40,202 nt of DNA from a virus. Shown here piece after piece: positions 30,001-33,000 of this stretch; the stretch's first letter is position 1; every line of letters begins with the position of its first letter. The stretch lies in the UHGV virus genome UHGV-0358046; one strand, 5' to 3'. Position numbers: made by a program.

Positions 30001-33000
30001 CCTGTAGCGAATCCGCACATCGCGCGATGGTCTGACAATATCCGCAACTGGCTGGTTGCCAGCAGACTCGGATCCGCGTTGCTGTCATCGTTCTCTGATC
30101 TTGGAACCATGTATCTGTCTGCGAAGGTTACCAACCTTCCAATGAACCAGTTATTCCGCAACCAGCTTGAAGCTATGGACCCAACGAACCGTACAGAACT
30201 TGCGCGGGCGCGCCGCGCTGGTCTGGTGATGGAATCTCTACTTGGCAGCGTTAACCGCTGGGCGATGGATAATATGGGGCCGTCAGTGTCTCGTTGGGCG
30301 GCAACGGCCGTAATGCGTGCCAGTGGGCTTACAGCATGGTCAGATGCGCACAAGCGCGCCTATGGCGTAACCATGATGGGAAGCCTGGGAGAAGTAGTGT
30401 CACGGACACCAGACCTTCGTAGCCTCGATGACTCTGATTTTCGTATCCTGAAAAGCAAAGGGATTACTGACACAGACTGGAGCGTATGGAAGCTGGCGAA
30501 ACAGGAGGACTGGGGGAACGGTAATAATACGATGCTGACACCGGAAAGCATTATGCGTATCCCTGATTCAGCAGTTAAACATCTTGGTGAGCCTGAACGC
30601 GTGAAATTTGAGGCAATGCGTAAACTGCTCGGTGCCGTAACTGAAGAAGTTGATATGGCTGTTATTACACCGGGAGCACGTGAGCAACTGATAACCGGTT
30701 CTGGTATTCAGCGTGGAACATGGAAAGGTGAATTAACGAGAAGTGTTTTCCTGTTTAAATCGTTCCCTATCTCGGTTGTTATGCGTCACTGGTCACGCGC
30801 TATGGGTATGCCGTCTGCTGGTGGGCGTGCGGCATATATTGCGACGTTTATTGCCAGTACGACCATTCTTGGCGCTTTGTCGCAGCAACTTAACGACCTT
30901 GCGTCTGGTCGTAATCCTCGAGAGATGACAGGAGAAGATGCCGCAAAATTCTGGCTTGGTGCTCTACTGAAAGGTGGTGGTCTTGGCCTTTACGGTGACT
31001 TTTTATTGTCAGATCACACTAGGTACGGAAGCGGCGCGCTGGCGTCGATGCTTGGCCCGGTAGCTGGTCTGGTTGATGACGTAGTGAAGATTGCTCAGGG
31101 CATACCGTTAAATGCTGTGGAAGGGAAGAGTGAGCAGACTGGTGGTGATCTGGTGAAGCTGGGGAAAGGTTTGATGCCTGGTGCGAATCTCTGGTACTTG
31201 AAGGCGGCTCTCGATCACATGATCTTTAACCAGATGCAGGAGTATTTTTCACCAGGCTATTTGCGTAAAATGGAGCAACGTTCGAAGAAAGAGTTTAACC
31301 AGACATACTGGTGGCGACCACAGGATGTCACTCCGCAATAAAAGGAGATATGATGGTTCAAATAACTTTTATTGTACTAATATGTGCAGCGTTTTTATGC
31401 TATTCATACATTTTGATAAAAATGGGTTTCAATTGGAATCTCTGTTGCGTGCAGCGGCATGGTTCGGCTTTGTAGTATTCGGAATTGTATTGTTCGGAAG
31501 AATAATAAAATAACTAGTTAATTTGTGGATTGGTGCTGTTTTTCCATGATAGGGGTAATTATGAGAAAAGTATTTTTGATTTTTGGATTTATGCTTCTCG
31601 TTGGATGCCAGTCAGCTGCACAGTTTGAAAGAAATATGCTTACGTGGCGCGGGCAGAGTATAGACGCAATGGTTCAGCAGTGGGGGTATCCTCAGGGAGA
31701 GCTTACATCTCCAGATGGAAACAGAGTGTATGTTTACTCAAGCTCTGGTAGTTATAACGTACCACAAACCACAACGTATAATACTACGTCTAATCTAATT
31801 GGTAATACTATATATTCAAACACATACGCAACAACTGATGGCGGTTATACACTCCATTTCAGTTGCTCTGTTTACGTTGAGTTTGGTGCTGATAAGATTA
31901 TTAAAAATGTTACATGGCGCGGTAATAATTGCGTTGCGTGACATGTCACAGGCCGCTTTCGCGGCCTTGTTTTTAACGAATGCCACCGCCGCCCGGGCGG
32001 GAATCCGCAGACACAAAAAAGCCCGCGGCGCGGGCTTAAAGAACTATTTTATTGGCAGCTTATGCTTTGAAATTATGGCCAATCTGTTTTGGAAGTTTTC
32101 CGCATCACCCCACAACCAGGTTTCACCTTTCTCAAGTTCTTCCTCGTTATTCATCTCTATAAGTTCGCATGTCATCATGTCGTAACCATAGAGATGGAGG
32201 CCAAGTTCCAGTGCGTCATACATGCGAGCCTGCCAGAACGACATGCCTTCATGAGTCTGGTTGCGATCAGACACGATGATATCGTACCGTTCCAAGAGGT
32301 AGTTCATGAAGATGATGCCAGCGAAATCATGAAGCACAGCACGATGCTTAGGCTTCTGGGTTCTCCATACCAATATCTGCGTGACAGGACGGCAGTTAAG
32401 ATAGCTGTCAGGCTGGATAATGACACGATTGTAATACACTACCTCTTCGGTGAGGTCATTTATCAATGACAGTTCAAAGTGCGCCTGTGGAATCTCGCCT
32501 TTCTTACGATCGTCTACACGGACAACGCGGTATCCAGGAGCCAGAGAAACGCCTTTGACATCAGATGTGACATCGTTGCCGTTCACTAACTCTGAATACA
32601 GGGCGCGGTTGTCTGGAGTTTCGTTCAGATGAGCGAAAACCTCAGTTACCTTTGCCGGATTCAGCAGTTGTTGTGGCATACATCACCTCATAATATATAG
32701 ATGCTTCTTTAAGCGGGATTTACCATTAGGGTAAATGAACTATCCGAATGTTAAACGCCTTCGTACTCGTCAAATTTTCTCATGTGGGCTCCTCCTGTAT
32801 CGGTGCCTAATCGCTATGGATCACCCGTGAGGTAATAGTACGCTATTCACCCCCAGTCTGCAATCTGTACAGAATTATTTAAAGGCACATCCCTGTGCCG
32901 CCGCCCGTCAGAAGAATCCTGCTTTGTCGTTGATGTACTCCGCGTGAGTCTGGATATCACGCAGGCATTTACTCACACCGACGATGTAGCAGAACATGGT

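Follow-up and report, generated by a model that had tools for sequence, protein, structure and literature searches.

Epsilon15-like podophages carry a variable, swappable cargo slot directly after the gene for the last internal or ejection-type virion protein, and in the prophage studied here this slot holds two independent items, an inactivated small membrane-protein gene and an intact lipoprotein gene. Judged by its sequence, the latter is a real, constrained, and conserved accessory gene. We also observed, as a new finding, a recurrent linkage between its family and the last internal or ejection-protein gene in epsilon15-like podophages of Enterobacteriaceae, Yersinia, and Burkholderia. Our best guess, tentatively held and at somewhat less than even confidence, is that the lipoprotein would act in superinfection exclusion at the envelope or ejection step.

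The Prophage and Its Cargo Slot

The stretch of DNA analyzed (UHGV-0358046, 40,202 nucleotides, referred to as the window) is an epsilon15/phiV10-like (Uetakevirus) temperate podophage prophage of Escherichia coli K1 strains. It shares 99–100% DNA identity with phage vB_EcoP_ZX5 and with prophages of strains IAI39, APEC O1, and CE10, and the phiV10 backbone is collinear with it. The slot begins at the stop codon (TAA) of a gene for an 824-aa protein that matches phrog_684 ("virion structural protein," E = 0), and it is followed by minus-strand cargo and Bro-N/Ant genes and then by the tailspike gene at 34367–37486 (table 1). When the lipoprotein, the small proteins, and the neighboring cargo were scanned against Pfam, NCBIfam, and PADLOC, nothing informative emerged; the absence of a PADLOC match counts against an exclusion role.

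Table 1. Coordinates of features in and around the cargo slot of the window
Feature	Position	Strand	Remarks
824-aa virion-internal (ejection-type) protein gene	28867–31341	+	Last large gene of this kind; epsilon15 gp17-like/phiV10p20; phiV10 annotation
AAGGAG ribosome-binding site of the small ORF	31342–31347	+	Read directly; at TAA stop of the 824-aa gene; 5 nt before ATG 31353
Small ORF, frame A	31353–31475	+	40 aa plus stop; helix 1, then out-of-frame tail; truncated product
Frame B (-1 relative to frame A)	31412–31513	+	Ancestral frame after the deletion; loop plus helix 2
Heptamer G GGT TTC	31424–31430	+	X XXY YYZ form in frame A; -1 slip would restore the ancestral frame
Lipoprotein gene	31561–31941	+	126 aa; lipobox LVGC (Cys16), Gln at +2; BamE/BLIP-like mature domain (predicted) with conserved Cys102 and Cys124
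Perfect 12-bp palindrome GTGACATGTCAC	31938–31949		Overlaps lipoprotein stop; backbone element common to all slot alleles
Intrinsic terminator	31950–31975	+	Ends late structural/ejection operon; equivalent site annotated in phiV10
Convergent terminator of the 211-aa gene	32019–32037	-	Right-hand limit of the plus-strand cassette
211-aa cargo gene	32044–32679	-	Protein matches phrog_1349, function unknown

We surveyed slot alleles among 89 sequences that share the 3' end of the gp17-like gene. One allele, present in 39 of the 89, encodes a 57-aa two-helix protein together with a 118-aa polytopic membrane protein, and in 25 sequences a 46-aa two-helix protein is the sole content of the slot. The window-type cassette, small ORF plus lipoprotein, occurs in 13 sequences, and three have the lipoprotein gene alone. 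Every allele encodes envelope-targeted proteins. When complete E. coli genomes matching the slot flanks were considered, only 34 of 524 had the window allele. Like a moron, the lipoprotein gene is present in some and absent from other relatives that are otherwise collinear and is accompanied by a terminator, but a moron would also have a promoter of its own, and none above chance was found upstream.

The earlier note on this DNA had placed the lipoprotein stop codon inside a palindrome next to a terminator, and that arrangement is what we find: the TGA stop (31939–31941) lies within GTGACATGTCAC, and directly 3' of the palindrome follows a terminator hairpin (31950–31967; -21.5 kcal/mol, z = -3.1) with TTGTTTTT. 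Three exact copies of GTGACATGTCAC are present in the window (at 12270, 14535, and 31938), where about 0.002 would be expected by chance, and each stands beside a terminator-like hairpin. The phage phiV10 has the element at the same places, and it is also found 3' of the phiV10-type, phiv142-3-type, and Klebsiella cassettes. The palindrome and terminator thus belong to the phage backbone and not to the lipoprotein cassette; we rejected the palindrome as a part of the cassette because every slot allele has it and two other terminators have further copies, and as an RNA hairpin because it is not the paired element in the RNA fold.

The Small Membrane-Protein Gene Is Frameshifted

The ORF of 41 codons with an AAGGAG ribosome-binding site and a single hydrophobic helix, as described in the earlier note, is present, but its reading as an intended one-helix peptide did not stand. 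The ORF has start candidates at 31350 and 31353 (both ATG) and a TAG stop at 31473–31475, and in frame A it has one hydrophobic segment (residues 1–27; Kyte–Doolittle maximum 2.5 over 19 residues). Residues 1–19 align with intact 52–53-aa two-helix relatives (L132–L135), after which a 1-nt deletion at about 31410–31411 shifts the frame. Frame B encodes FDKNGFQLESLLRAAAWFGFVVFGIVLFGRIIK, which corresponds to FDKKGFNLEPQARAAAWFGFVVFGLVLLGRLVT of L132 and in hydropathy analysis shows a second hydrophobic helix segment. From these alignments we conclude that the small ORF derives by a 1-nt deletion from a gene for a 52–53-aa two-helix inner-membrane protein, which relatives have in intact form, and that the product of the ORF is predicted to be at most a 40-aa one-helix stub; a designed one-helix peptide was rejected because two-helix relatives without the frameshift exist. 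Positional equivalents of the small ORF are phiV10p21 (phrog_7892) and the 57-aa protein of phiv142-3, which also have two helices and a ribosome-binding site at the gp17-like stop. These proteins are intact and of other sequence, whereas the window copy is frameshifted, and the helix-2 motif WFxFVVxGxVL is common to the window gene and the 57-aa type.

The proposal that the small ORF and the lipoprotein form a pair was not borne out, as the two genes are also found separately: Salmonella, Klebsiella, and other E. coli phages have the lipoprotein but not the small ORF, and the intact small two-helix gene has either unrelated genes or none after it. A true two-component system would have the two products cooperate, the full two-helix protein being regained by -1 slippage at the heptamer, which indeed has the X XXY YYZ form and from which a -1 slip re-enters the ancestral frame. 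There are also arrangements in other lineages that recall a pair, as the lipoprotein gene overlaps the stop of a gene for a two-helix protein of roughly 100 aa in a Raoultella prophage and in locus L091, and a 252-aa membrane protein precedes the lipoprotein in a Yersinia phage. However, these upstream membrane proteins are mutually non-homologous between lineages, the lipoprotein stands alone in most lineages, and all small-gene copies that we found to adjoin the lipoprotein gene belong to the same frameshifted clone. Programmed frameshifting was judged unlikely, as the intact relatives are read in a single frame, need no frameshift, and are without the heptamer. The heptamer is probably fortuitous, and we regard a two-component system as very improbable.

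The Lipoprotein and Its Family

The lipoprotein itself agrees with its earlier description in length, lipobox, and richness in Ser, Thr, Asn, and Tyr (together 38.7% of the mature protein). The identical 126-aa coding sequence is called by PGAP and in the ZX5 GenBank record. Signal-peptide and helix prediction, one of the checks that the earlier note had proposed, returned a signal peptide with a lipobox for the lipoprotein and one hydrophobic segment for the small ORF. The signal peptide is MRKVFLIFGFMLLVGC (MRK-VFLIFGFML-LVGC; the lipobox comprises residues 13–16), and there is no membrane helix beyond it. The dN/dS of the gene is 0.08–0.14 (about 0.1). The lipobox Cys is invariant in 21 homologs, and Cys16, Cys102, and Cys124 are invariant or nearly so across 72 diverse members. 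Cys16 is followed by Gln17, within a conserved motif, CQ[ST]A, that the enterobacterial homologs share. As there is no Asp at +2, the Lol-avoidance rule of Enterobacteriaceae predicts sorting to the outer membrane, and the mature protein is predicted to face the periplasm with almost no tether.

The protein is a member of phrog_3716, a family of unknown function (E = 5e-64; residues 11–126 against positions 1–116 of the 116-position profile). The family is large, with 3,749 cluster representatives, and the majority of these are apparently free-standing genes on chromosomes, spread over many phyla; because of this, its ancestral function may not concern phages, which counts against the exclusion reading. 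No conserved chromosomal partner genes were seen around distant family members. The predicted structure (pLDDT 84) has a BamE/BLIP-like fold of two helices and a beta-sheet that is extended by long hairpins rich in Ser, Thr, Asn, and Tyr. By this prediction the fold resembles those of BamE/SmpA_OmlA, OsmE, BLIP, YjgB (DUF4309), and the CAP-associated N-domain, from all of which the lipoprotein is distinct in terms of Pfam: none of the 72 family members matches the Pfam models of these families, apart from one weak CAP_assoc_N match, and the lipoprotein has no match to the BamE/SmpA_OmlA HMM (PF04355). The family also has a signature of its own, a GNxC motif at the C terminus with a Cys pair. 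Sequence search of the PDB with the lipoprotein returned only two weak, irrelevant matches, and search of BFVD only phage proteins that are uncharacterized or labeled "SmpA/OmlA."

Linkage to the Ejection Module

The linkage takes several forms. Among 34 IMG/VR contigs, 25 have the lipoprotein gene 12–660 nt 3' of the gp17-like gene on the same strand, and in three it is placed between the gp17-like gene and a 665-aa gene, whose stop codon it overlaps. In L177 it lies within the ejection-protein operon, and the Yersinia phages YeP4-6 and Burkholderia phage vB_E332 have it on the opposite strand, immediately next to the end of the gp17-like gene, so that the two genes are convergent. Phages of Salmonella, Klebsiella, and Raoultella also carry family members in the slot. 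The divergence of the lipoprotein is decoupled from that of its gp17-like neighbor (79% versus 33% identity to the respective proteins of a Klebsiella phage, and 68% versus 94% to those of a Salmonella prophage), so that the two do not co-evolve, which is a further point against the exclusion model.

This position in or beside the internal-protein operon in several lineages is what would be expected if the lipoprotein were a virion component or a chaperone of ejection proteins. Such a structural or assembly role nevertheless seems extremely improbable, given that a Sec/lipobox signal peptide exports the lipoprotein from the cytoplasm, where heads are assembled, that most of the phage group is without it, and that the gene has the opposite orientation in two lineages. 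We also rejected a function as an Rz1-type o-spanin because the lysis cassette, 6 kb away, has its own Rz/Rz1 pair (i-spanin at 39108–39590 with an embedded lipoprotein ORF at 39307–39582, lipobox LAGC).

Another explanation is that the lipoprotein, made together with the structural proteins, conditions the envelope late in the lytic cycle and plays no part in the lysogen; it might act against a host enzyme of the periplasm or outer membrane, or against an envelope-stress response, or it might keep progeny from ejecting DNA into debris and vesicles. In most relatives the lipoprotein gene lies 0–15 nt from the preceding late gene or overlaps it, an arrangement that, like the position inside the ejection operon in L177, fits this explanation, and such translational coupling to the late operon counts against an exclusion role with expression from a repressed prophage. 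A search upstream of the window gene likewise revealed no promoter above chance and none that was convincing. A BLIP/BtiO-like fold is moreover typical of protein inhibitors, and a family member is present in virulent T7-like Rhizobium phages. On the other hand, most epsilon15-like phages, including phiV10, are without the lipoprotein yet grow normally. In the Yersinia and Burkholderia phages the gene is transcribed against the late operon, and these opposite-strand copies therefore require a promoter of their own. Enterobacter quasihormaechei also has an intact orphan copy, left in a prophage that has decayed. On balance we consider a purely late function unlikely.

The same orphan copy, which has outlasted the decay of its prophage, would suit a lysogenic-conversion factor of the Bor/Iss type that raises serum resistance, envelope robustness, or colonization by the K1 host and takes no part in conflict between phages. 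The hosts of the window prophage are extra-intestinal pathogenic K1 strains (IAI39, APEC O1, and CE10), and chromosomal genes of this family are widespread, both of which are consistent with conversion. However, the same slot is occupied in Salmonella, Klebsiella, Raoultella, Yersinia, and Burkholderia phages whatever the pathotype, and a tight and repeated linkage to ejection genes is unexpected for a host virulence factor. The members in virulent Rhizobium phages also favor a role that serves the phage over one in host virulence. A conversion factor is accordingly, in our estimate, improbable.

Comparison with Known Exclusion Systems

Superinfection exclusion is the most plausible role for the lipoprotein because it is encoded by a conserved accessory gene, in a slot for envelope proteins, at a position like that of sieA. 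In P22, sieA comes after gene 16, the last one for an ejection protein, and before gene 9 for the tailspike, next to an antirepressor region, and the slot studied here has the same relative position, with a Bro-N/Ant gene and then the tailspike gene following. DNA injection is blocked by SieA, and mutations that escape this block lie in ejection proteins gp16 and gp20 (PMC10883804). The two proteins differ in that SieA is a polytopic inner-membrane protein, whereas the lipoprotein would act from the outer membrane, and neither the lipoprotein nor the small proteins match the SieA PHROG.

Llp of T5 is a periplasm-facing lipoprotein that excludes T5, and Llp and Cor (of T1, phi80, and N15) are phage outer-membrane lipoproteins that face the periplasm, contain a pair of conserved Cys residues, and have genes adjacent to those of the entry apparatus (PMC9586334). 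The window lipoprotein shares these traits, its outer-membrane location and orientation being predicted. The earlier view that it is unrelated in sequence to Cor and Llp is upheld by our searches, which matched it to neither protein, and to no PHROG family annotated as superinfection exclusion, in either sequence or fold. Other prophage lipoproteins that block infection at entry are Ltp of Streptococcus thermophilus phage TP-J34 and Lpp of the mEpimmI coliphages (PMC3952083, PMC11893012); the mEp exclusion lipoprotein genes lie inside the structural gene cluster, and their products act via the OmpA or LamB receptors (PMC11893012). In contrast to the window lipoprotein, to which they are unrelated in sequence, Ltp and the mEp Lpp are siphophage proteins.

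The tailspikes that co-occur with the lipoprotein are of the endosialidase, P22-tail, GDSL-lipase, and NAGPA types, and the presence of the lipoprotein is independent of tailspike type. Given this independence and the many glycan-cleaving tailspike types, a strict receptor block as by Cor or Llp is unlikely. We propose instead that the lipoprotein may be a phage-serving envelope protein that would protect the lysogen or infected cell from incoming phages. Its target would be a host component, in the outer membrane or periplasm, on which podophage ejection proteins depend to build their trans-envelope DNA conduit or, alternatively, the conduit itself. Such a block to DNA entry would be SieA-like but imposed from the outer-membrane side by means of a BLIP-like protein-binding module, a mechanism that would differ from the masking of a protein receptor by Cor/Llp-type proteins. 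In the literature on epsilon15, Uetakevirus, ZX5, and BcepC6B we found no data on exclusion phenotype, localization, or expression of family members, and the ZX5 paper does not mention the lipoprotein gene.

Significance

Little is understood, to our knowledge, of the way in which the ejection proteins of podophages traverse the outer membrane and periplasm, or of how cells or resident prophages block this crossing. The only dissected example of such a block that we know of is SieA, at the inner membrane. The lipoprotein family, which has no Pfam match, is a candidate for a block on the outer-membrane side and may provide a handle on the host factor of the conduit. It could also matter for phage therapy where K1, Salmonella, or Klebsiella strains carry such prophages. 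Should it have no phage phenotype, the lipoprotein would be one more uncharacterized cargo gene. One can further speculate, as a rather unlikely case, that the phrog_3716 lipoproteins constitute an unrecognized podophage-specific class of exclusion or defense proteins in which a BLIP/BamE-like module on the inner leaflet of the outer membrane would jam the ejection conduit. If so, the module could lock BamA, LptD, or a comparable essential machine of the outer membrane, used by the conduit or the phage, through allostery like that of Llp on FhuA, and the chromosomal family would include domesticated copies that serve as innate barriers against podophages.

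The Slot and Its Phage Background

The region 31200–32100 is 99.9% identical to the temperate phage vB_EcoP_ZX5 (genus Uetakevirus), and its flanks match phiV10, phiv142-3, and Salmonella SPN1S-like phages. E. coli IAI39, APEC O1, CE10, and 31 other complete genomes have prophages with the same allele; among 5,426 genomes the flanks were matched in 524, and only 34 contained at least 80% of the query. The gene order is collinear with that of phiV10 and runs from terminase, portal, head, and tail genes through three large internal virion proteins (837, 600, and 824 aa) to the slot under study, which is followed by minus-strand cargo (a 211-aa protein of phrog_1349, a Bro-N/Ant protein, and a small conserved protein), a 1,039-aa tailspike, and the lysis cassette. 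Epsilon15 is among the podophages listed in a review as having a clustered ejection-protein operon (PMC8954989), and in our reading this module ends with the gene for the 824-aa gp17-like protein, which belongs to phrog_684 ("virion structural protein").

The tailspike is an endosialidase, as PGAP names it and as the ZX5 paper also describes, and this epsilon15-like prophage is therefore specific for the K1 polysialic-acid capsule; the close hosts seen are all K1-type strains. The 211-aa cargo protein matches no Pfam model, and relatives have DUF2335, DUF4760, or other genes in its place, so that its position is a further variable slot, in convergent orientation to the first. An o-spanin ORF embedded in the i-spanin gene of the lysis cassette is a second lipoprotein gene of the window and has no relation to the slot lipoprotein.

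An earlier note had described a small ORF behind an AAGGAG motif, a lipoprotein gene rich in Ser, Thr, Asn, and Tyr whose stop codon lies in a palindrome, and an adjoining terminator. We recovered each of these, and the four residues make up 38.7% of the mature lipoprotein.

Coordinates of features in the window and in related loci
Feature	Locus	Position	Strand	Remarks
gp17-like gene	window	28867–31341	+	824 aa
AAGGAG	window	31342–31347		read from sequence
Small ORF	window	31353–31475	+	ATG 31353, TAG 31473–31475
Missing base	window	~31410–31411
G GGT TTC heptamer	window	31424–31430
Lipoprotein gene	window	31561–31941	+	126 aa, lipobox LVGC
Palindrome GTGACATGTCAC	window	31938–31949		overlaps lipoprotein TGA
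Palindrome, further perfect copies	window	12270–12281, 14535–14546
Palindrome, one mismatch	window	17622–17633
Intrinsic terminator	window	31950–31967		downstream of palindrome, then T-run
211-aa cargo gene	window	32044–32679	-	own terminator 32037–32019
Tailspike gene	window	34367–37486
i-spanin gene	window	39108–39590
o-spanin ORF	window	39307–39582		lipobox LAGC
Internal-protein operon holding the lipoprotein gene	L177 (also L175, L176)	1965–6980		one IMG/VR lineage; lipoprotein 137 aa, between a 665-aa gene and the 846-aa gp17-like gene
Distant members, opposite strand	L147; L148	5950–6399; 2646–3053		Burkholderia phage vB_E332, Yersinia YeP4-6
Candidate hydrophobic ORF	L086 (Klebsiella phage)	4852–4971	-	39 aa
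Orphan lipoprotein locus	L092 (Enterobacter quasihormaechei)	5100–6450		downstream of guaA

A Frameshift in the Small ORF

In relatives, a small hydrophobic ORF always lies directly 3′ of the gp17-like gene and is of three types: that of phiV10 (46 aa, annotated with two transmembrane helices, phrog_7892), that of phiv142-3 (57 aa), and that of the window. Searching IMG/VR with the conceptually repaired small protein identified four contigs (L132–L135) that encode an uninterrupted protein of 52–53 aa (e.g., MNQIIFIVIISGAFLCYSYAFDKKGFNLEPQARAAAWFGFVVFGLVLLGRLVT). Residues 1–19 of the window ORF match these proteins in the frame starting at 31353, and FDKNGFQLESLLRAAAWFGFVVFGIVLFGRIIK matches them in the -1 frame, ending at 31513; DNA alignment revealed that one base is missing in the window (TACA-TTTTGAT vs. 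TATGCCTTCGAT in the relatives). The single-helix peptide of the earlier note does contain one hydrophobic segment, but hydropathy analysis revealed two helices in both the intact and the repaired proteins, and the ORF is a frameshifted allele. The same lesion is present in every window-type copy seen (12 loci in one search, 11 in the IMG/VR search, ZX5, IAI39, and FDAARGOS_1257). Because ZX5 forms plaques and lysogenizes (PMC9782041) while carrying it, the small protein is dispensable for laboratory growth. Five codons past the deletion, the heptamer G GGT TTC has the canonical -1 slippery form, and a slip there could in principle restore the ancestral frame; the heptamer is absent from the intact relatives and is therefore probably fortuitous. 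In the window, only a pseudogene-like remnant of this gene is left.

The Lipoprotein Family

The lipoprotein matches phrog_3716 (E = 5e-64), a family already catalogued without an assigned function, and has no match in Pfam, NCBIfam, or PADLOC; we found no treatment of the gene family in the literature searched. The 37 close homologs, all about 126 aa, are from E. coli, Shigella, Salmonella, Klebsiella, Enterobacter, Raoultella, and Citrobacter, and when 1.84 billion cluster representatives were searched with a profile, 3,749 relatives came up at E ≤ 0.001, of which 1,103 reached E ≤ 1e-10. Genome matches span many phyla; most of them stand alone on the chromosome, and no conserved neighbor was found among those examined. 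Pfam models gave only scattered weak matches among 72 diverse members. Conservation falls on the lipobox Cys, W29, G31, a WGYP motif, G53, Cys102, and a C-terminal G-N-x-Cys124, which suggests a periplasmic disulfide between the two latter cysteines. By the established +2 rule, its Gln at +2 predicts that the lipoprotein is sorted to the outer membrane by the Lol route. Its gene has a dN/dS of 0.08–0.14 against six phage-borne homologs, compared with 0.018 for the neighboring 824-aa gene, indicating that it is functional yet evolving faster than its neighbor. The AlphaFold2 model (pLDDT 84) places two short helices ahead of an antiparallel sheet of long strands and resembles the CAP-associated N-domain (9.2), YjgB/DUF4309 (7.5), a putative beta-lactamase-inhibitor protein (7.2), BamE (7.0), the T6SS immunity protein BtiO (6.9), and OsmE (6.5), a likeness that, on this model, is one of fold only and not of family membership.

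Genomic Context and Independence of the Two Genes

The lipoprotein gene starts 0–15 nt after the gp17-like gene, with no small ORF between them, in Salmonella prophages (P0013, with entries in 930 blocks of the contig collection) as well as in several prophages from E. coli, Shigella, and metagenomes. A Raoultella prophage and locus L091 have a gene for a two-helix protein of about 100 aa whose stop codon the lipoprotein gene overlaps, and in the Klebsiella phage the lipoprotein gene lies downstream of a 921-aa gp17-like homolog; the 176-nt gap there holds the candidate hydrophobic ORF. A family member is present on 34 IMG/VR contigs: on 25 it shares the strand of the gp17-like gene and lies 12–660 nt downstream, on three it lies between a 665-aa gene, whose stop it overlaps, and the gp17-like gene, and six are other phage types. 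Virulent T7-like Rhizobium phages carry a member after the large terminase gene. Distant members (lipoboxes LIGC and FSGC; hhalign probability 97%, E = 1e-11) occupy the same gene end on the opposite strand in vB_E332 and YeP4-6 and must therefore have their own transcription. Upstream of the YeP5 member, the same strand encodes a 252-aa membrane protein that carries a (TK)n repeat and Cys-rich motifs.

The lipoprotein of the Klebsiella phage is 79% identical to that of the window and its gp17-like protein 33%, whereas in a Salmonella prophage (L087) the values are 68% and 94%; this decoupling indicates that the cassette moves between backbones. The small gene is accompanied by a 118-aa polytopic protein, a secreted 102-aa protein, or no partner, and the lipoprotein gene mostly lacks a small gene beside it. 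Membrane proteins are encoded upstream of the lipoprotein in three lineages, and these partners are not homologous to one another. The proposal that the two form a pair is not supported, as they are adjacent only in one clonal, frameshifted configuration; they are independent modules.

The perfect palindrome occurs exactly three times in the window, and palindrome and terminator follow every slot allele, including that of Klebsiella. The copy at 12270 overlaps the stop of the regulator-like gene (112 aa) that directly precedes the small terminase gene (terS), and about 40 nt further on lies a terminator-like hairpin; that at 14535 directly follows the terminator after the large terminase gene, and both it and the copy at 31938 adjoin an intrinsic terminator. 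In phiV10 the palindrome stands at equivalent sites (three matches vs. 0.12 expected; three reached in 0 of 100 shuffles), so it is a backbone element linked to terminators. It is perhaps a protein-binding site with a part in terminating or antiterminating late transcription, or a module-boundary sequence.

Possible Role of the Lipoprotein

The analysis establishes anatomy, accessory status, purifying selection, predicted lipoprotein signals and fold class, and repeated linkage to the ejection module. In P22, sieA lies between gene 16 and gene 9, and the slot lipoprotein is likewise tied to ejection-protein genes. SieA acts on ejection proteins (PMC10883804), Llp is a periplasm-facing lipoprotein able to exclude a phage (PMC9586334), and mEp phages carry exclusion lipoproteins within structural clusters (PMC11893012). 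From position and precedent, we tentatively suggest superinfection exclusion, in which the lipoprotein on the periplasmic face of the outer membrane would interfere with DNA entry of an incoming phage. Because carrier phages recognize surface glycans via varied tailspikes, we favor interference with the conduit, or with a host factor that it uses, over receptor masking of the Cor/Llp type; presence of the lipoprotein did not track tailspike type.

Against exclusion, most relatives show the gene in tight coupling with late genes, and the protein does not covary with the gp17-like protein; no promoter above chance was found in front of the gene. The large non-phage membership of the family also weighs against exclusion. 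In Enterobacter quasihormaechei, lipoprotein gene and terminator are intact in a decayed prophage, with a one-mismatch palindrome and only a multi-frame 3′ fragment of the gp17-like gene, which hints at either a benefit to the host or recent decay. We consider a late role in the lytic cycle less likely than exclusion, conversion to the benefit of the host improbable, and any remaining reading less probable than either of these alternatives to exclusion.

The finding is real yet of an ordinary kind, a prophage cargo slot, and its interest lies in an unannotated lipoprotein family that is linked to podophage ejection genes. As a candidate exclusion lipoprotein it would add to a kind already known; if its target is the ejection conduit, reached from the outer-membrane side, it would be a variant of that kind.
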